DNA from: Rhodospirillales bacterium
GTDB lineage: Bacteria; Pseudomonadota; Alphaproteobacteria; Rhodospirillales; UBA2165
Assembly (NCBI GenBank): GCA_028345065.1
Contig: JAOMCN010000006.1
Coordinates: 9,941 to 73,940 of the forward strand
Length of the DNA: 64,000 bases
Direction: 5' to 3'
Shown: positions 52,240-59,470 of the stretch, one piece after another
Numbering within the stretch: position 1 is the stretch's first letter
Layout of the letters: the number at the start of each line of letters is the position of its first letter
Translations under genes and position numbers: made by a program
Notes under the pieces: generated by a model
Seen by the model: the letters and a program-made list of their open reading frames with translations, nothing else
Databases searched by the model: none
What the model was told of the DNA's origin: nothing

Positions 52240-52566
52240 TTAGTCTTCAAATTTTGCGGTAAAACCTACGTCAGTACCTTCGTAATTTCCGTGCTGGTCG
52301 ATAGGCTTTTTCTTCCTACTTACGGTCTTTTTCTTTTTTGAGGTCTTTTTCTTTGAATTCGAATTTTGTATTGAAGTGGAGGTGAAACCAACATCAGTTC
52401 CTTCATAATTGCCATGTTTATCGATCGGTTTCTGTTGGGCATAAATTCTCTTAGACCTAACCTGGGGTTTCTTAGAATTTGATTTCGCAACTTTAGGCCG
52501 GGGTTCCTTCTTCAAAACCCTGTTGGCATATGCATCAGCATAAATTCTGTTGATATTATCACTCAT
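52240..52566 (-). CDS. Lys-rich 108-aa protein with two copies of a KPID(K/Q)HGNYEGTDVGFT motif; function unknown
   Basis: ORF in the track. The internal repeat differs almost only at synonymous sites, which supports real coding. No family recognised. Confidence 0.55.
   Translation of the reverse strand: MSDNINRIYADAYANRVLKKEPRPKVAKSNSKKPQVRSKRIYAQQKPIDKHGNYEGTDVGFTSTSIQNSNSKKKTSKKKKTVSRKKKPIDQHGNYEGTDVGFTAKFED
52258..52431 (-). repeat. Two 51-nt intragenic direct repeats (52258-52308 and 52381-52431)
   Basis: Codon-by-codon comparison across 17 codons: 10 synonymous differences and 1 replacement (Q/K). Confidence 0.85.
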
Positions 52567-53368: not shown

Positions 53369-54235
53369 ATGATAGTTATTATTGGTGCCTCGGGTGCAGT
53401 GGGCATACCTCTAATCAAAGAACTGACACGCCGTGATACCCGTTTAAGGATCTTAACCTCAAACTCCGCCTCGGCAAAAAATTTAAACTCCCTTGGCGTG
53501 ATTGAAACGATTATCGGGGATTTTCATTCCGATGAAGACGTCAAAAATGTCATAAAGGGAGCAAGCTCAATCTGTTATATTCCGGCTCGATTTAGAGAAG
53601 ACGAGTTTGAAATAGGAAAGCGCATTGTAGATTTGGCGCGCAATGAACAGGTTGAGCATTTTTGCTTTTGCTCAGCCTACCATCCTCAGATGGAGCAACT
53701 GGGCCACCATTGGCAAAAACTAAAGTTAGAAGAGCACCTTATTAACTCTGATCTTATGTATACAGTAGTACAACCTTCAATGTTCATGCAGAACTTGCGC
53801 GTGGAATGGACACGGATAATTGAAGAAGGAACCTACCCCCGGCCCTATTCGCCAGAAAGTCAAATGAACGTCATTGATACCGATGATCTCGGTGAAGCCA
53901 TGGCCAATATATTGCTAGACAATCGGTTCTGGGGGGGAACATATGAATTATGTGGTTCTGAAACGCTGAGCCACAACCAGATGGCTGGTATTATCAGCGA
54001 AGAACTTGGGGAAAAAGTGGAAGCAGTTCAACGTGACATTGAGGATTGGAAGTCGTGGGCGATCGAAAAAGAATGGACAGATTACGCTATACGTAACTAT
54101 GTAAACATGTGTCGTCATTACAATGACCACGGCTTTAAATATGGTAATGACTTAATTCTCGAAACAATTCTTGGTCGACCAGCAACCAAATACCGGTCAT
54201 TTATTAAAAAGTTTATTGAAAGCCAGAATACCTAG
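53369..54235 (+). CDS. NmrA-like NAD(P)-binding (atypical SDR) protein
   Basis: MIVIIGASGAVGIPLIKEL...VQPSMFMQN... Confidence 0.75.
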   Translation: MIVIIGASGAVGIPLIKELTRRDTRLRILTSNSASAKNLNSLGVIETIIGDFHSDEDVKNVIKGASSICYIPARFREDEFEIGKRIVDLARNEQVEHFCFCSAYHPQMEQLGHHWQKLKLEEHLINSDLMYTVVQPSMFMQNLRVEWTRIIEEGTYPRPYSPESQMNVIDTDDLGEAMANILLDNRFWGGTYELCGSETLSHNQMAGIISEELGEKVEAVQRDIEDWKSWAIEKEWTDYAIRNYVNMCRHYNDHGFKYGNDLILETILGRPATKYRSFIKKFIESQNT

Positions 54236-54405
54236 GCCGCCTCGCCTCATTATTGAATATCCAGTTTTCAGTATTTATCAGAGTAAGAACGTCACCAGGC
54301 GGTCCAGCACACAACATCTTTTAGTGCAGTTGGTTTCACCGGCACTGTTCCGTCAGCGCCAATATGATTTATTAAGATGCCGAATCTACTTACTTATCAA
54401 CAGAC

Positions 54406-55749
54406 TCAAACATCGTTGATTGTCGCCGACGCGAAGGTTCTAGTTTCTACAGTCGTGGCAGCTAGAGGGCGGCGCAGCGTACCTGGCACAATTCCCGCCT
54501 TGAGAGAACTCATCACGCCAACCGCTTCCCAGTAGTTTTCTACAACGTGCAACTGTCCTTTCGCCCAGGGAAGAGCCTCAAGGTCATTTTGCATAAGGTT
54601 ATCATTCTCACGCACTGCAATGACAGGTATACCCTGTTCAAGAGCCGCCAACGTGGGTAGCCCAACACACTTATCGGGAATAACTAAACAAGAAATATCA
54701 GAAGCCGTAAAAATTCCAGCCTCGCCCAAAGCCTCGGGGTGGCTGACTATGCGTGGGCTACGATGTAGACCTTTCAACATACACTGCAGGAAGGTAAAGG
54801 ATACAGCCTCAGCCGCTAACCGCGGCTCAACCAATCCCAAATCAAAATCTGCCACTGCCTGACTTTCAAGCATTGGTGAGTGTGCTGTTGGCAGACCATA
54901 AAGCAGCGATAACGAGTGGGTTAACATTGCTTCGACACCGCCCCACGGGTTCACCATTTTGCCATCGCGGCGAAAATACTCTTTATGGTATTCATCGGGG
55001 ACGTCAACAACAGATGCGATGGCTACAGCATCAAACGCACCATCATGCTCATCCAACACCGTGCAGACGCGATATAAACCCTCGACCTCCCCCGCTGCCC
55101 TGCCGGAGTCCGTGAAACACGAGGTCATGCGAAGCGGTGGGTCGAGCTTCACAACCTTAACGCAATCAAATCCATAGGTCGCGCGAGCAGCACTTACTGC
55201 ATTGACCGTATCATTAACAAACACTTCAGTTTCATGTGCATCTATGAGTACTAGTACTCTATTTGCCCGGACGCGTTGCAACCCAGCCGTCCCCATTAAT
55301 AATTGGGTAATTGAACTACCCTCAACATAAAGAGCATTCTCTGGCATTTCATTGAGATCAGAGGCGTTTACGACGTTCGGATGGGTAACCAACGTATCAC
55401 AAGCTGTTGCAATCACCCTTGCCGCCGGCGTCGCATCGCCGGCATGGCCTCCAATCTCAGCACCAATTCCCGTCGGCACCAAAAAGACAGCATTAAACGC
55501 ATCCGTCCTTTCTACCTTGCGGGGCACAAAGCTAAAAATGGAATTAAGCCCTCTTGTCTTTGCGATTTCCATGCCTTCGAGCGTGCCTAGTTCGCAATTA
55601 TACTCAACACCAGTTACACCGGTAATCACGAAACGTATTGGAAGCACCGTATCACCGAGCGTTACTTCTACTGTCTTTTTGATATGAGAAATCAGGCTGT
55701 GATGACTTGGCGCGACAGGTATCCTTACTTGCCTCTCGATCAGCTTCAC
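54406..55749 (-). CDS. Conserved protein of unknown function, DUF3326-like
   Basis: FLVPTGIGAEIGGHAGDATPAARVIA and MVNPWGGVEAML match what I recall of DUF3326. I prefer the GTG at 55749 (GAGGGG lies 7 nt upstream), 8 nt after the stop of the AdoMetDC-like gene. The ATG at 55890 would overlap that gene by 131 nt. Confidence 0.45.
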   Translation of the reverse strand: MKLIERQVRIPVAPSHHSLISHIKKTVEVTLGDTVLPIRFVITGVTGVEYNCELGTLEGMEIAKTRGLNSIFSFVPRKVERTDAFNAVFLVPTGIGAEIGGHAGDATPAARVIATACDTLVTHPNVVNASDLNEMPENALYVEGSSITQLLMGTAGLQRVRANRVLVLIDAHETEVFVNDTVNAVSAARATYGFDCVKVVKLDPPLRMTSCFTDSGRAAGEVEGLYRVCTVLDEHDGAFDAVAIASVVDVPDEYHKEYFRRDGKMVNPWGGVEAMLTHSLSLLYGLPTAHSPMLESQAVADFDLGLVEPRLAAEAVSFTFLQCMLKGLHRSPRIVSHPEALGEAGIFTASDISCLVIPDKCVGLPTLAALEQGIPVIAVRENDNLMQNDLEALPWAKGQLHVVENYWEAVGVMSSLKAGIVPGTLRRPLAATTVETRTFASATINDV

Positions 55750-55759
55750 TTGCGTCCCC

Positions 55760-56134
55760 TCAAATTCGTTCAATAAACCTGGCAGAGCAGTCGGTGGCAC
55801 CGAACCAATCGACCGTAAACTTTTCTGCGATATTGGGGTCAAAATCCTTGCAAGAAAATATATTAATGTAAATGGCTCCCATCTGGTCAAGCGTATGAAT
55901 TACGATAGAACTCGTCAAAATAAACTGAACGGCTGAAGTACCCTGAGTATGGGCAGACGTTTGTCTTTCTTTCACAGGAACATCAAAATCGTCCCAAAAG
56001 TGTAACGCCTCACGTTTCATATCGATGAGTTTGCAGAGGCTTTCAAAATACCTACTAATACTTTTTCGCGTAAATGTACCAGGGTCGCAACCATGCAAAT
56101 CTAATATAAGTTCAGCCCCAAATTTTTCCATCAC
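55760..56134 (-). CDS. S-adenosylmethionine decarboxylase-like (pyruvoyl enzyme fold, PF02675-type) protein
   Basis: GAELILDLHGCD...GTSAVQFILTSSIVIHTLDQMGAIYINIFSCKDFDP parallels the short bacterial SpeD pattern [32 protein letters not shown]. Here Thr-Ser replaces the usual Glu-Ser processing site. RBS GGAGAGG. Confidence 0.7.
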   Translation of the reverse strand: MMEKFGAELILDLHGCDPGTFTRKSISRYFESLCKLIDMKREALHFWDDFDVPVKERQTSAHTQGTSAVQFILTSSIVIHTLDQMGAIYINIFSCKDFDPNIAEKFTVDWFGATDCSARFIERI

Positions 56135-56344
56135 CTCTCCAACTCTTCTGTAGGGCCATCACTTTGAACCGATCCAATAAAGGCTTTGGTGTAGTCTATG
56201 TTTCAACCACTTTAAGGTGATGCCAAACCCAAGTGGACTGGCACAATCAACACTTGTCTGTGACATATGTTGAGTTTTGGGATATTCGCCAACTATAATA
56301 TTTAGCGAATTTTCACTCGAGAATCGCATCCGCTTTTCTTTGAG

Positions 56345-57505
56345 TCAATCCAGGATAACGTGTGGAATAAAGTTGGCATCCCTGCTCGTGACTAAATTCT
56401 GATCCTCCCTAATACACATTCCCACTGCTTGACTCGCTACCAACCAACACCCTACTAGAGGATAGTTTCCCGAAAATTCCGGTAGCGGATGATATGCTTG
56501 CAAAATGTGGTCGCCGTCGCCGTAAGGCCCTTCACTGCGAGTTTGTGTTTTACCTTCTTGGATTATTTGAACGTTGGCCCCTTGTCGTGACAGTAACGGC
56601 TTACGGACAAAGGAACCAGCCAGCTCCGACGCTCGCCGATCACCGTCAAAATACGCTGGCAATAAATTTGGATGTCCAGGAAACATCTCCCAGAGAAATG
56701 CCATTAGCCCCTTGTTAGAGAGTACAGCCTTCCATGGCGGCTCAAGAAACCTGGTGCCACTCGCTGGTACGCGGCGCCCAAATTCTTCTTCAAACATCCA
56801 TTCCCAAGGATACAACTTAAAGAGTGTTTTGATCACCTGATCATCAAGGTCGGTAAAACAACCCCGATCATCTATGCCGATTTCTTGCATAGATAGGAAA
56901 CAAGTCGACAAGCCGGCTTCCCGGGCACATTCCTGAAGGTAATCAAGGGTCCCTTTATCATCCTCGATGTCTCCAACACATGCGAAGTGCAGAGACCCGT
57001 CAAAATCTATAAGTGAGAACGCCTTTACAATACTATCGTGGAGGTCATTAAATTGATCACATCCGTCAGGTATCAAGCCCTTCTCCATGGCTTGTTCCAA
57101 CCACTCCCATTGAAAAACGGATGATTCGTAAAGGGTCGTTGGCGTATCAGCATTATACTCCAGAAGTTTTGCGGGCCCTTCTCCGTCATAGGAGAGGTCC
57201 ATTCGTCCATAAATATTTTTTTCCCCGTTCCGCCAACTTTCGGCAATATAGTCCCAAAAACATTCCTCGATGCCAAGAGAACGGAAGACGGTTTCATCGT
57301 TCACGGCGCGTTCTATAAGTTCGAAGCACAGGTGTTCTAGTTCCTCCGCCGGCCCTTCAAGATCCTCTTCAATTTGTTTTAAGGTGAATTGGTAGTAAAT
57401 GCTCTCATCCCAAAAGGGGATGCCACCATTCGCGTGAAATTGAAAGTTGTGTTCCTTTGCCACTCGCTCCAAATCGGGCCGTTCAGTTGCGGGGATGCGC
57501 AGCAT
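56345..57505 (-). CDS. Glutathionylspermidine synthase-like ATP-grasp protein (YgiC/YjfC family)
   Basis: ERPDLERVAKEHNFQFH...WDESIYYQFTLKQIE...GRMDLSYDGEGPAKLLEYNADTPTTLYESSVFQWEWL parallels E. coli YgiC/YjfC. Confidence 0.85.
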   Translation of the reverse strand: MLRIPATERPDLERVAKEHNFQFHANGGIPFWDESIYYQFTLKQIEEDLEGPAEELEHLCFELIERAVNDETVFRSLGIEECFWDYIAESWRNGEKNIYGRMDLSYDGEGPAKLLEYNADTPTTLYESSVFQWEWLEQAMEKGLIPDGCDQFNDLHDSIVKAFSLIDFDGSLHFACVGDIEDDKGTLDYLQECAREAGLSTCFLSMQEIGIDDRGCFTDLDDQVIKTLFKLYPWEWMFEEEFGRRVPASGTRFLEPPWKAVLSNKGLMAFLWEMFPGHPNLLPAYFDGDRRASELAGSFVRKPLLSRQGANVQIIQEGKTQTRSEGPYGDGDHILQAYHPLPEFSGNYPLVGCWLVASQAVGMCIREDQNLVTSRDANFIPHVILD

Positions 57506-57533
57506 CTAAGGTATCAAGTCCCGCCGAATTACG

Positions 57534-58085
57534 TCAGGTAGCTGCTGATCCGAGACGCCCACCAGAAGCACCAAAGCCCCCGCGAGAGAGGGTTGAGCGC
57601 TTCATAGAAGGACGTCTGCCGGCTGAGCTGGCAACTTGAGTTCTACCGGTCTTAGAGCTCACTTTCCTGTTGTCTGCCGTGCGGTAACCTTTGGGATCAT
57701 CTGCCGCACGGTAAAGTGGCTGGGGAAAAATTGAGCTTCGCCTGCCGCCCGAATTCATCATGCTTCCCATCATATAGCCCATCATTAAGGGCATAAAAAC
57801 AGAACCCCCACTCCTCGTCTGGTAAGGCGCTTGTTCACACCTCCCGGCTCCGAATTCGCCCTCACAATCATTTTTAGAAGTGAACTTTGGTGCCACCTCA
57901 GCGTGTTGGCTACGTGCTTCTTTATAGCCTTGTTCACATTGTTCACGTGTCGAACCGGAATTATCAGTACATTGTTGTAGGCTAGAAAATATCTCCGCAT
58001 CTACTTTTGGTTCATCACATGCGGAAAGTGCTATAGCGCTGACGCTCATTACTGCAGCAGCGGAAATTGAGTTCCAGCGTTTCAT
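57534..58085 (-). CDS. DUF1190 lipoprotein (YjfM/YgiB family)
   Basis: Lipobox ALSAC, ...QCEQGYKEA...APKF.S..DCEGEFGAGRCEQAP...FMPLMMGYMMG...LSRGGFG parallels E. coli YgiB/YjfM. Confidence 0.85.
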   Translation of the reverse strand: MKRWNSISAAAVMSVSAIALSACDEPKVDAEIFSSLQQCTDNSGSTREQCEQGYKEARSQHAEVAPKFTSKNDCEGEFGAGRCEQAPYQTRSGGSVFMPLMMGYMMGSMMNSGGRRSSIFPQPLYRAADDPKGYRTADNRKVSSKTGRTQVASSAGRRPSMKRSTLSRGGFGASGGRLGSAAT

Positions 58086-58126
58086 ATAAATTCTCCAGAA
58101 TGGACCATCATTTTTTGTCTAATCAG

Positions 58127-58537
58127 TCAAGGGGACATACAAGCGGCGTTAAGGAGTCCACCAGTCAAAGACGTAGCCCCAAGCCAAAGTCCGCTAGAGG
58201 TCTCGCCTTTCTCAATTCTCTCGGATATTCCAGGTATGGGCAGACGAACAAGAAAAAAAATAATAATTTGGACGAGAATTGCAATTAGGCCCCAGATTAC
58301 ACAATCGGCCAGAGCCACCGAATGAGCAATTACGCTAGCCAGAGGCAGAGAAAAACCAACTAAGCTGCCTGCAAAGGCGACCGAAGCCGCCAAGTTATTT
58401 TCCCTAATCAACTTGAACTCGGGATGAGGTGTCACCCAAATGTATACAAATACATAGACTAATGTCAGCGCTGTCGCCGTTACCAAATACGCTATAAATG
58501 ACTGTATAGCGTCAAGAGAAATGCCAATGATTTCCAT
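58127..58537 (-). CDS. DUF350 membrane protein (YjfL family)
   Basis: VTPHPEFKLIRENNLAASVAFAGSLVGFSLPLAS...GGLLNAACM parallels E. coli YjfL. The ATG at 58537 (MEIIGISL) is preferred. Confidence 0.85.
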   Translation of the reverse strand: MEIIGISLDAIQSFIAYLVTATALTLVYVFVYIWVTPHPEFKLIRENNLAASVAFAGSLVGFSLPLASVIAHSVALADCVIWGLIAILVQIIIFFLVRLPIPGISERIEKGETSSGLWLGATSLTGGLLNAACMSP

Positions 58538-58682
58538 ATGATGATACCCTGAGGTGATTACGATCAAGTGAAAGCAGCAATATCATGATTAGATGTCGAT
58601 CAAAAGGAGAAAGCCCCATACTTCAACAGTGATTATGGGTGTTTTCTTATTATTCGGTGAGCCTCCTAATCAGCTAAAGGGA

Positions 58683-59093
58683 TTACCGTTTTACCTGCCA
58701 AGTCCAGCCTATCACGGCCTCAAGCCGTTTTTTGCGAACCGGATCCATGGTATTTCGAGCAATTCTCTGGCGTTCAACCCACCTCCAAAGATCAAACCCA
58801 TCTGGCGTAATATGGTTATATGGAACAGAGGCGTCACCATCCGCAGCAACAAATTCCTCCAAATGCTCAAATCCTTCTTCCCATACAAGATGATCACGAA
58901 TATTCCAGATCCAACCTTTTAAGGCTTCCAAGCGCGCCTTCCGCTCGGCATCCAATGAATTCCGAAATGTCCTTTGACGTTCAACCCACCTTCCAAGATC
59001 AAAGCCGTCAGCACACAAATGAGCCGCTGGTACCTTGGCATTACCGTTGGCGCGGACAAATTCCTCCATATGTTTAAAGCCTTCTTCCCACAT
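58683..59093 (-). CDS. Stand-alone protein made of two helicase-associated (HA, PF03457-like) repeats
   Basis: Two units: WEEGFxHxEEFV.A.G.A.VP.....DGFDL.RWVERQR....... R..RLEA..GW.W. The ATG at 59093 is preferred. Confidence 0.6.
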   Translation of the reverse strand: MWEEGFKHMEEFVRANGNAKVPAAHLCADGFDLGRWVERQRTFRNSLDAERKARLEALKGWIWNIRDHLVWEEGFEHLEEFVAADGDASVPYNHITPDGFDLWRWVERQRIARNTMDPVRKKRLEAVIGWTWQVKR

Positions 59094-59470
59094 CGAATCC
59101 AATGTACATAACCTCCAAAAAAATTTAGCTGCTAACAACTAAGCGACGTTAGTTCAATACAAATAAATTATAGAGGATAAATTGTAACCAAATTTCTCCT
59201 TATGGGCCGCATTTGATGATTGCTGTCGGATTAGATTTTGATTTATCGCGCCTATTATGAATATAAAAGTAATCAAACCAAAAATGCGGGTCCACCCTGA
59301 TTAATGGGGTAAAATACATAAATTATGATGACTTTTCATTATAGAGACCGTCGAATGGTTGCCTCTCCAATAATACCTGGTAGCTCTTGATTGTATTAAG
59401 TAATAATTATTAATACCGACAGCCTATGCGCAAATTCAAGACCAAATTTATGAAAATATCGATCTTTCCC

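Follow-up and report, generated by a model that had tools for sequence, protein, structure and literature searches.

Results

The window analysed here is a 64-kb stretch of a Rhodospirillales bacterium contig (64,000 nt of JAOMCN010000006.1), and this report concerns two adjacent genes on its minus strand (Table 1). The first encodes a putative pyruvoyl-dependent decarboxylase with the fold of S-adenosylmethionine (AdoMet) decarboxylase (AdoMetDC, or SpeD), hereafter the small protein, and the second encodes a protein of the family DUF3326 in its long form. An earlier reading made from the letters of the window alone (the sequence-only reading) had described both open reading frames (ORFs), and both are present on that strand at the positions it gave. 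The GAGGGG ribosome-binding site and GTG start that it assigned to the 447-aa protein are likewise present, and its 8-nt spacing between stop and start is the sole point of its description to be corrected: the stop codon of the small ORF occupies 55762-55760 and is overlapped by GAGGGG, and 10 nt (GGGGACGCAA) separate it from the GTG at 55749. An ATG one codon into the small ORF (56131) is more likely to be the start of the small protein than the GTG, and nearly all homologues have the 123-aa form that it yields. Residue numbers below refer to the 124-aa form.

The two genes travel together across distant lineages. A survey based on DUF3326, with one genome per species, gave 80 long-form loci (52-77% identity) in more than 12 phyla, covering Alphaproteobacteria, Chloroflexota/SAR202, Planctomycetota, Marinimicrobia, Acidobacteriota, Bacteroidota, Nitrospinota, Binatia, Verrucomicrobia, SAR324, Myxococcota, and Actinomycetes. 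A decarboxylase gene adjoins the DUF3326 gene in 77 of these loci; it is SpeD-like in 48, where it lies directly upstream every time, and it encodes an NspC-like protein of about 400 aa in 29 (25 upstream and 4 downstream of DUF3326). Two of the remaining loci are cut by contig ends, and a single one is without a decarboxylase gene, its contig reaching only 277 nt downstream. The converse survey, based on the small protein, used clade-specific motifs to recover 80 metagenome contigs, 68 of which extend at least 300 nt downstream. DUF3326 is the next gene on the same strand in all 68 (within 200 nt in 65), and the gaps, measured between profile matches in these loci, are mostly 3-14 nt. One 562-aa protein (P0245) even joins the two in frame, with a SpeD-like domain, a short linker, and DUF3326, and its site reads Gln-Ser. 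The pairing is close to obligate in both directions. The sequence-only reading had proposed that co-occurrence and fusion be analysed and had named a lack of conserved pairing as a result that would refute it; the outcome is the opposite, with a pairing that persists in phages and across more than 12 phyla, and with one natural fusion.

The decarboxylase that accompanies DUF3326 is exchangeable. The alternative partner of about 400 aa is a pyridoxal 5'-phosphate (PLP) enzyme of the Orn/DAP/Arg decarboxylase fold, and among the NCBIfam models nspC, carboxynorspermidine decarboxylase (TIGR01047; E=2e-82, 277 bits), is by a wide margin its top match, ahead of lysA (E=5e-20, 71 bits). In 11 viral loci (L173, L178, L179, and L181-L188), a PS_Dcarbxylase-family protein (PF02666; E=5e-10 and 3e-26) with a Gly-Ser site adjoins long-form DUF3326. 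The partners seen besides the SpeD-like one are thus NspC-like and PSD-like (phosphatidylserine decarboxylase-like), and standard ornithine, lysine, or arginine decarboxylases are not found among the adjacent partners. In a neighbour-joining tree of 163 DUF3326 sequences, NspC-partnered genes appear at no fewer than 7 separate places among SpeD-partnered ones, and the NspC-partnered locus L037 is nearest to the SpeD-partnered locus L040 (distance 0.17). More specifically, locus L075 reads GSP_synth, NspC-like, DUF3326, which is the context of the window with the other decarboxylase, and L059 reads NspC-like, DUF3326, DUF350, DUF1190, GSP_synth; no NspC-like ORF occurs in the 64-kb window itself. 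Since nearly identical DUF3326 enzymes are served by unrelated decarboxylase folds, the small protein would be an active decarboxylase that does the same job as the others. Moreover, an exchange that extends to a PLP type argues that DUF3326 is not a mere maturation factor of a pyruvoyl enzyme.

The small protein passes the Pfam threshold for the AdoMet_dc superfamily (PF02675; E=7e-15, 55.7 bits against a cut-off of 25), and the DUF3326 protein matches PF11805 over profile positions 2-336 of 337 (E=2e-95, 319.8 bits), so that both families named in the sequence-only reading are recovered by the profile searches it had suggested. When the AlphaFold model of the small protein (predicted local distance difference test, pLDDT, 70.8) is compared with the PDB, the top two places go to the class 1b AdoMetDC structures 2iii and 1tlu (probability 1.00). 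A sequence search of PDB chains gave weak AdoMetDC matches only, and the sole tblastn match of the small protein among PLSDB plasmids and GenBank phages was a Sinorhizobium phage SpeD (30% identity). The segment 'LLAESHISIHT...YTCGD' of the A. aeolicus AdoMetDC aligns with 'FILTSSIVIHT...FSCKD' of the small protein, and His80 and Cys95 stand at Ser+5 and Ser+20, the spacing of S63, H68, and C83 in the T. maritima enzyme, where these residues are needed for self-processing and catalysis (PMC10407285). Ser75, His80, and Cys95 are invariant in sequences from more than 10 phyla, among them a 15-sequence alignment drawn from many phyla, and Thr74 is nearly so. The short SpeD layout with its IHT and SC(K) positions, as first described from the letters, is borne out by the family match, the fold match, and the alignment of His80 and Cys95. 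Self-cleavage is predicted between Thr74 and Ser75, and Ser75 would then turn into the pyruvoyl group.

Judged by its sequence, the small protein does not belong with ordinary AdoMetDCs: on TIGR03330, the equivalog model for AdoMetDC, it reaches 27.7 bits where the cut-off is 75.65, and the Pro of HTWPE, which is completely conserved in bona fide AdoMetDCs (PMC10407285), is replaced. The same two features count against an ordinary SpeD, which the sequence-only reading had entertained as an alternative. The small protein has IHTLDQ in place of IHTWPE and Thr-Ser in place of Glu-Ser, and the latter change and the preceding insertion, both noted earlier, are seen in the alignment to 2iii. The insertion (FWDDFDVPVKERQTSAHT in the window) is an acidic stretch of 10-12 residues that is missing from 2iii; its cross-phylum consensus is FWDDxGVPxEExQTxPHT (also given as FWDDxDVPxxExQT), and it forms a low-confidence loop in the AlphaFold model.

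On sequence comparison, the small protein comes closest, among characterised proteins, to the SpeDC enzymes, a group of pyruvoyl-dependent L-ornithine decarboxylases that arose from class 1b AdoMetDC (Li et al., J Biol Chem 2023, PMC10407285). A clade profile built from DUF3326-paired SpeD-like sequences gave 45-48 bits for two validated SpeDC domains printed in Fig. S5 of that paper, as compared with 12-15 bits for bona fide AdoMetDC domains. Common to SpeDC and the small protein are the fold, a length of about 120 aa, the Gln-x-x-x-Thr-Ser site, the His at Ser+5, and the Cys at Ser+20, and the AdoMetDC-specific Pro is lost in both alike. The SpeDC site reads 'VQLIETS', and Thr-Ser is a working cleavage site there (PMC10407285). 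Thr-Ser, which the sequence-only reading had taken for an oddity, is therefore a known hallmark of characterised enzymes. Differences are also evident. SpeDC is diagnosed by four central-region residues, Gln, Thr, Phe, and Tyr (PMC10407285, Fig. 8); Gln70 and Thr74 are present in the small protein, whereas the Phe and Tyr positions, as mapped from Fig. S5 and not from the logo, hold Thr and Phe/Asp. In our mapping, GHF and NYYD of SpeDC correspond to IHT and KDFD of the small protein. Unlike SpeDC, the small protein carries the additional conserved acidic loop FWDDxGVPxEExQT, and its clade always has DUF3326 downstream, a partner absent from the account of SpeDC in PMC10407285.

The DUF3326 family comprises 1222 representatives at 50% clustering. 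Its long form (about 450 aa) has a core of about 340 aa preceded by an additional domain of some 85 aa at the N-terminus, and its short form (about 335 aa) is without the N-terminal domain. The conserved motifs among 47 diverse members are polar and Gly-rich, namely PTGIGAxIGGHAGDA, THPNVVNASD, NPWGGxEA, AHAP, DPRxAAE, and an invariant Y406; VPTGIGAEIGGHAGDA and NPWGGVEA, which the sequence-only reading had singled out, are both among the most conserved. Within VPTGIGAEIGGHAGDA, P92, T93, G94, G100, G101, G104, and D105 are invariant or nearly so, and this Gly-rich loop is a candidate for ligand or phosphate binding. Neither Lys nor Cys is conserved in the 47-member alignment. The AlphaFold model (pLDDT 75.5; predicted template modelling score, pTM, 0.80) contains Rossmann-like alpha/beta units. 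Foldseek comparison of this model with the PDB matched only a lumazine-synthase-like subdomain (E about 1e-3, TM 0.2 on the query), along with weak matches to the two-lobe periplasmic-binding/LacI fold that are insufficient to name a cofactor. Searches against PDB chains with the single sequence and with the 47-member profile gave nothing meaningful, and a Pfam scan up to E 10 returned PF11805 with no second family. A degenerate SpeD domain was considered as the identity of the N-terminal domain of the long form and rejected (hhalign probability 0.4%). One family member, P0243 (739 aa), bears a C-terminal extension of about 300 aa without a Pfam match; a RelA/SpoT-like likeness of this extension, seen by eye, was dropped as Pfam gave no support at E up to 0.1.

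The pair is also found on viral contigs. DUF3326 is encoded on 79 IMG/VR contigs (L170-L248), and on phage-like contigs (L165-L169 and IMG/VR) members of the SpeD-like clade and short-form DUF3326 lie beside tape-measure, capsid, terminase-like, and portal-like genes. When IMG/VR and the five phage-like contigs are taken together, a SpeD-like gene lies no more than 2 kb from short-form DUF3326 in 58 of 64 loci; in 52 of these 58 it is immediately adjacent, and upstream in all but one. No other gene was found to recur with the pair on viral contigs, which suggests that the two genes are sufficient and act on common host metabolites. By tblastn, DUF3326 was not detected in GenBank phage records (INPHARED) or in PLSDB plasmids. 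Polyamine enzymes, among them pyruvoyl ornithine decarboxylases of about 120 aa, are already known from phages, where they count as auxiliary metabolism. DUF3326 goes unmentioned in the work on these phage-borne enzymes, and its name turned up in just three papers in a full-text literature search.

Outside the alphaproteobacterial ligase-linked lineage described below, the commonest neighbours of the pair are PtuA and PtuB, the two components of the Septu defence system. They lie directly beside the pair on the same strand in 17 of the 80 genome loci, from many phyla (L028, L036, L037, L040, L041, L043-L046, L048, L049, L056, L057, L063, L064, L067, and L070), and on many metagenome contigs (L123, L125-L128, L131, L132, L143, L145, L149, L161, and others). 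PADLOC models identify PtuA (an AAA_15/21 ATPase; PDLC00304, E=3e-53) and PtuB (HNH; PDLC00339, E=1e-49), and match neither protein of the pair. PtuAB is located upstream of pairs with either a SpeD-like or an NspC-like decarboxylase, with gaps of 50-100 nt by coordinates. It is possible that PtuA, PtuB, the decarboxylase, and DUF3326 form a four-gene variant of Septu. A literature search for a link between Septu and a decarboxylase gave nothing relevant, and neither PtuA nor PtuB is present in the 64-kb window. In four Septu-linked loci (L028, L036, L041, and L056), a gene for a 4-HFC-P synthase (MfnB-like; PF04476, E=2e-38) precedes PtuA.

Other neighbours recur in particular groups. In SAR202/Dehalococcoidia loci (L030, L039, L050, L054, L060, L071, L073, L081, L083, and others), the NspC-like/DUF3326 pair is repeatedly accompanied by a protein of about 490 aa without a Pfam or NCBIfam match, a K+ channel with an RCK domain, PaaK/F390-synthetase-like adenylating enzymes, and a protein of about 1070 aa with a SecA-like GEGKT...VTxNDYLAxRD motif, the last recognised by eye only. 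In L027, L034, L035, L043, L052, and L061, which belong to different lineages, a multi-pass membrane protein of about 400 aa with only a weak DUF1129 match is encoded directly upstream of the pair, and could be a transporter for its substrate or product.

In the window, genes for a GSP_synth-family ligase, a DUF1190 protein, and a DUF350 protein lie upstream of the pair on the same strand. The trio has the domain order of yjfL-yjfM-yjfC when read from DUF350 through DUF1190 to GSP_synth, and relatives of the window locus also carry DUF2170 (YjfI-like) and PspA (YjfJ-like) genes. The corresponding loci of E. coli are yjfIJKLMC and ygiBC, and the YjfC and YgiC proteins encoded there are peptide-spermidine ligases. 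Clusters in which hss accompanies a gss homologue, known from a phage and from beta-proteobacteria, are a precedent for a polyamine synthase beside such a ligase. The E. coli yjf and ygi loci are not known to contain SpeD-like or DUF3326 genes; unlike them, the window locus has a putative dedicated amine-making pair attached. The sequence-only reading had connected the pair with a glutathionylspermidine-synthase-like cluster, and this connection holds only within an alphaproteobacterial lineage. Of the 80 genome loci, 23 have the pair linked to the GSP_synth trio, as have roughly half of the 80 metagenome loci; the named ligase-linked loci are all alphaproteobacterial, with three gene orders. 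Furthermore, three metagenome contigs that are about 94-95% identical to the window (L085, L086, and L087) have a clean 2065-bp deletion corresponding to 56357-58421, which removes GSP_synth, DUF1190, and most of DUF350 and retains the pair with its 210-nt leader. The link to the ligase is a feature of that lineage, and the pair can do without it.

Discussion

Polyamines are near-universal metabolites, and the routes of their biosynthesis had seemed largely mapped. With a confidence that falls a little short of even, we propose that the two genes form a module of two enzymes that suffices by itself to make a primary amine, most probably a polyamine, and in which DUF3326 condenses first and the decarboxylase acts second. 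DUF3326 would be a new C-N bond-forming enzyme that attaches an amine, for example a diamine, to the side chain of an alpha-amino-acid precursor. This step would yield an N-omega-aminoalkyl basic amino acid, or 'carboxy-polyamine', such as carboxyspermidine, N5-aminobutyl-ornithine, or N6-aminopentyl-lysine. The small protein would cleave itself at Thr74/Ser75 to make its pyruvoyl group and would then strip the alpha-carboxylate from the carboxy-polyamine, releasing the polyamine, which is the job that NspC does with PLP. A slight change of specificity would suffice for SpeDC-type and NspC-type enzymes to act on an N-omega-aminoalkyl ornithine, lysine, or diaminobutyrate, and the additional acidic loop could serve to bind the extra ammonium group. 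In the window, the polyamine product may further be ligated to a peptide by the YjfC-like ATP-grasp ligase.

The nearest parallel is the known two-step route to spermidine and norspermidine, in which carboxyspermidine or carboxynorspermidine dehydrogenase (CASDH/CANSDH) is followed by carboxyspermidine decarboxylase (CASDC) or NspC. That pathway also consists of a two-gene set of condensing enzyme and decarboxylase, and would have the same carboxy-polyamine logic as the pair, with DUF3326 taking the place of the dehydrogenase. The condensing enzyme of CASDH/CASDC belongs to the saccharopine dehydrogenase family, to which DUF3326 has no match by Pfam, PDB sequence, or fold. The decarboxylase of the window is of the pyruvoyl SpeD-like type, whereas that of the known pathway is the PLP-type NspC, a relative of which occupies 29 of the related loci. 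By this analogy, the module is most likely a two-step polyamine-type unit with a non-homologous synthase. To our knowledge, all characterised NspC-family enzymes decarboxylate carboxyaminopropyl-amines, and this specificity suggests that the substrate shared by the exchangeable decarboxylases is an N-substituted amino acid.

The only experimental datum on DUF3326 comes from a June 2026 preprint on pavettamine, which touches one variant of the module and in which the product is a free polyamine. PavB, a DUF3326 protein, and PavA are both genetically required for the triamine bis(5-aminopentyl)amine, PavA consists of a Rieske domain and a PLP-type carboxynorspermidine-decarboxylase-like domain, and cadaverine is present with or without the two proteins (bioRxiv 10.64898/2026.06.12.731819). 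As the diamine is there without PavA and PavB and both are needed for the triamine, decarboxylation would seem to follow condensation. By the description of PavB, PavA/PavB resembles our pair in that a DUF3326 protein works with a decarboxylase; it differs in that the decarboxylase is of PLP type and fused to a Rieske oxygenase, in that a JmjC hydroxylase follows, and in that the host is a plant-associated member of the Burkholderiaceae. The searchable literature describes the module nowhere else, and searches for a pyruvoyl carboxyspermidine decarboxylase and for SAM-dependent carboxyaminopropyl transfer to diamines gave nothing relevant. The sequence-only reading had suggested an uncharacterised two-component amine-forming system, and pairing, fusion, partner exchange, pavettamine genetics, and the family of the ligase all support that suggestion. 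The pathway itself, including the order of steps, the substrates, the cofactor, and the self-cleavage, is what we infer.

Several observations weigh against a condensation-first polyamine pathway. The nearest characterised relatives of the small protein decarboxylate ornithine, which would fit a decarboxylase-first order equally well. The lack of a conserved Lys in DUF3326 argues against PLP and points to no other cofactor, and the DUF3326 model is of moderate quality (as its pLDDT indicates), with no full-length PDB match and no demonstrable site for NAD(P) or another cofactor. On three viral contigs (L174, L238, and L248), the gene directly upstream of DUF3326 encodes an OCD/mu-crystallin protein (PF02423, E=9e-53), and a decarboxylase was not detected near DUF3326, although L238 and L248 are cut within that gene. 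Attempts to reconstitute pavABC in E. coli were unsuccessful, and the condensing role of PavB was itself inferred (bioRxiv 10.64898/2026.06.12.731819). In cyanobacteria, DUF3326 genes have been reported beside fed3 and DUF650 and not beside a decarboxylase, which suggests that the family may not share one single chemistry.

The reverse order of steps is the chief alternative, and we regard it as somewhat unlikely: the small protein would make a diamine from ornithine or another basic amino acid, and DUF3326 would convert it to a triamine or a derivative, as a non-homologous counterpart of homospermidine synthase (HSS) or SpeY. The clade-profile scores and the Gln-x-x-x-Thr-Ser site shared with SpeDC favour this order, as do the clustering of SpeDC genes with hss, casdh/casdc, or speD/speE, the small pyruvoyl ornithine decarboxylases known in phages, the correspondence of bis(5-aminopentyl)amine to homospermidine, whose cadaverine analogue it is, and the Rossmann-like domain described in PavB (bioRxiv 10.64898/2026.06.12.731819). 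However, the IHT/KDFD residues in our mapping and the acidic loop depart from SpeDC, the standard ornithine, lysine, and arginine decarboxylases are missing from the adjacent partners seen, and no HSS or deoxyhypusine synthase structure is among the 50 Foldseek matches listed. The pav triamine, moreover, needs PavA although cadaverine is present without it. A role for the small protein as a genuine AdoMet decarboxylase, with DUF3326 as a non-homologous aminopropyltransferase that uses decarboxylated AdoMet, would agree with the Pfam family, with the frequent adjacency of speD and speE, and with the lack of a SpeE GGGDG signature in the 64-kb window. We nevertheless hold it to be highly unlikely, given a score far under the equivalog cut-off, the lost Pro, the greater nearness to ornithine decarboxylases, NspC-like and PSD-like replacements that are not known to use AdoMet, and a pav product built of C5 rather than aminopropyl units.

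The Septu-linked and viral loci raise the question of whether the amine is a polyamine at all. The module could instead make or modify a non-polyamine amine for use in phage-host conflict, for example by placing an aminoalkyl group on a nucleotide, cofactor, or macromolecule, and the likeness to polyamine enzymes would then be mere resemblance. The same-strand position of the pair beside PtuAB, its frequency on phage contigs, and a PSD-like partner that normally acts on a serine head-group and not on a polyamine precursor are consistent with this proposal, which we think quite unlikely: neither protein has a PADLOC match, the window is without PtuA and PtuB, the product in the sole experimental case is a free polyamine, and phage polyamine genes are already known as auxiliary metabolism. 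The probability that DUF3326 is only a maturation factor or regulatory subunit of the decarboxylase, comparable to PanZ for PanD or the prozyme of trypanosomal AdoMetDC, appears to us close to negligible. Pyruvoyl enzymes sometimes need activators, and the tight coupling and the fusion would suit one, but DUF3326 also pairs with a PLP-dependent decarboxylase that needs no cleavage, it is 340-450 aa long and its many invariant polar residues (D105, N125, E273, H290, E314, and Y406) are of the kind found in active sites, and pavB is needed for the product although PavA uses PLP. A wider form of our proposal, which we consider distinctly unlikely as a whole, would have DUF3326 found a new class of C-N bond-forming (poly)amine synthases that use any decarboxylase, with a product that is also a currency of phage-host conflict. 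Phages would then keep the short-form pair in order to produce this amine, and in many phyla the long-form pair would belong to a four-gene variant of Septu in which the amine arms or controls the nuclease system.

The condensation-first module, if it exists as proposed, would have consequences beyond the window, as the pair is widespread in marine Alphaproteobacteria, SAR202/Dehalococcoidia, Marinimicrobia, Planctomycetota, Acidobacteriota, Bacteroidota, Nitrospinota, and others, and on at least 79 viral contigs. That three unrelated decarboxylase folds replace one another beside DUF3326 provides an unusually sharp hypothesis, open to test, for an orphan family with over 1200 sequence clusters. 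Decarboxylation of a carboxy-polyamine would be a fourth activity of the AdoMetDC fold, after decarboxylation of AdoMet, arginine, and ornithine. It is also possible that the module supplies the missing enzymology of the livestock toxin pavettamine, points to the physiological amine substrate of YjfC/YgiC-type ligases, and explains the presence of the same pair in phages and in Septu-type defence loci.

Other features of the locus

The features of the pair and its neighbourhood are collected in Table 1. An Rfam scan over 53900-59300, made with a riboswitch or other RNA in the 210-nt leader in mind, gave no match; a promoter and terminator scan of the leader gave nothing convincing, with sites no more numerous than in shuffled sequence.

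Table 1. Positions of the gene pair, its predicted functional sites, and the adjacent genes in the window.
Feature	Position	Strand	Evidence or remark
SpeD-like (AdoMetDC-fold, SpeDC-related) putative pyruvoyl decarboxylase	55760-56134	-	124 aa from GTG
Thr74-Ser75 codons, predicted self-cleavage site	55910-55915	-	Alignment to 2iii and SpeDC 'VQLIETS'
His80 codon (= T. maritima H68)	55895-55897	-	Alignment; invariant
Cys95 codon (= T. maritima C83)	55850-55852	-	Alignment; invariant
Clade-specific acidic insertion FWDDFDVPVKERQTSAHT	55946-55999	-	Directly before the cleavage strand
Two-gene junction	55750-55765	-	TGA overlapped by GAGGGG, 10-nt spacer, GTG start; from sequence
DUF3326 protein, long form, 447 aa	54406-55749	-	PF11805, E=2e-95
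Gly-rich loop VPTGIGAEIGGHAGDA	55432-55479	-	Between strand and helix in the model
NPWGGVEA motif	54928-54951	-	N267, P268, G270, E273, A274 invariant or nearly so
Intergenic spacer 5' of the pair, 210 nt	56135-56344	-	Kept in deletion variants
GSP_synth-family ATP-grasp ligase (YjfC/YgiC-like)	56345-57505	-	PF03738, E=2e-138
DUF1190 protein (YjfM/YgiB-like)	57534-58085	-	PF06693, E=3e-38
DUF350 membrane protein (YjfL-like)	58127-58567	-	PF03994, E=2e-37

Just upstream of the DUF350 gene, a 151-aa protein made up of two helicase-associated (HA, PF03457) repeats is encoded on the minus strand (58683-59138), and is kept in the deletion variants. On the other side of the pair, a lysine-rich ORF of 108 aa (52240-52566, minus strand) contains the motif KPID(K/Q)HGNYEGTDVGFT twice.

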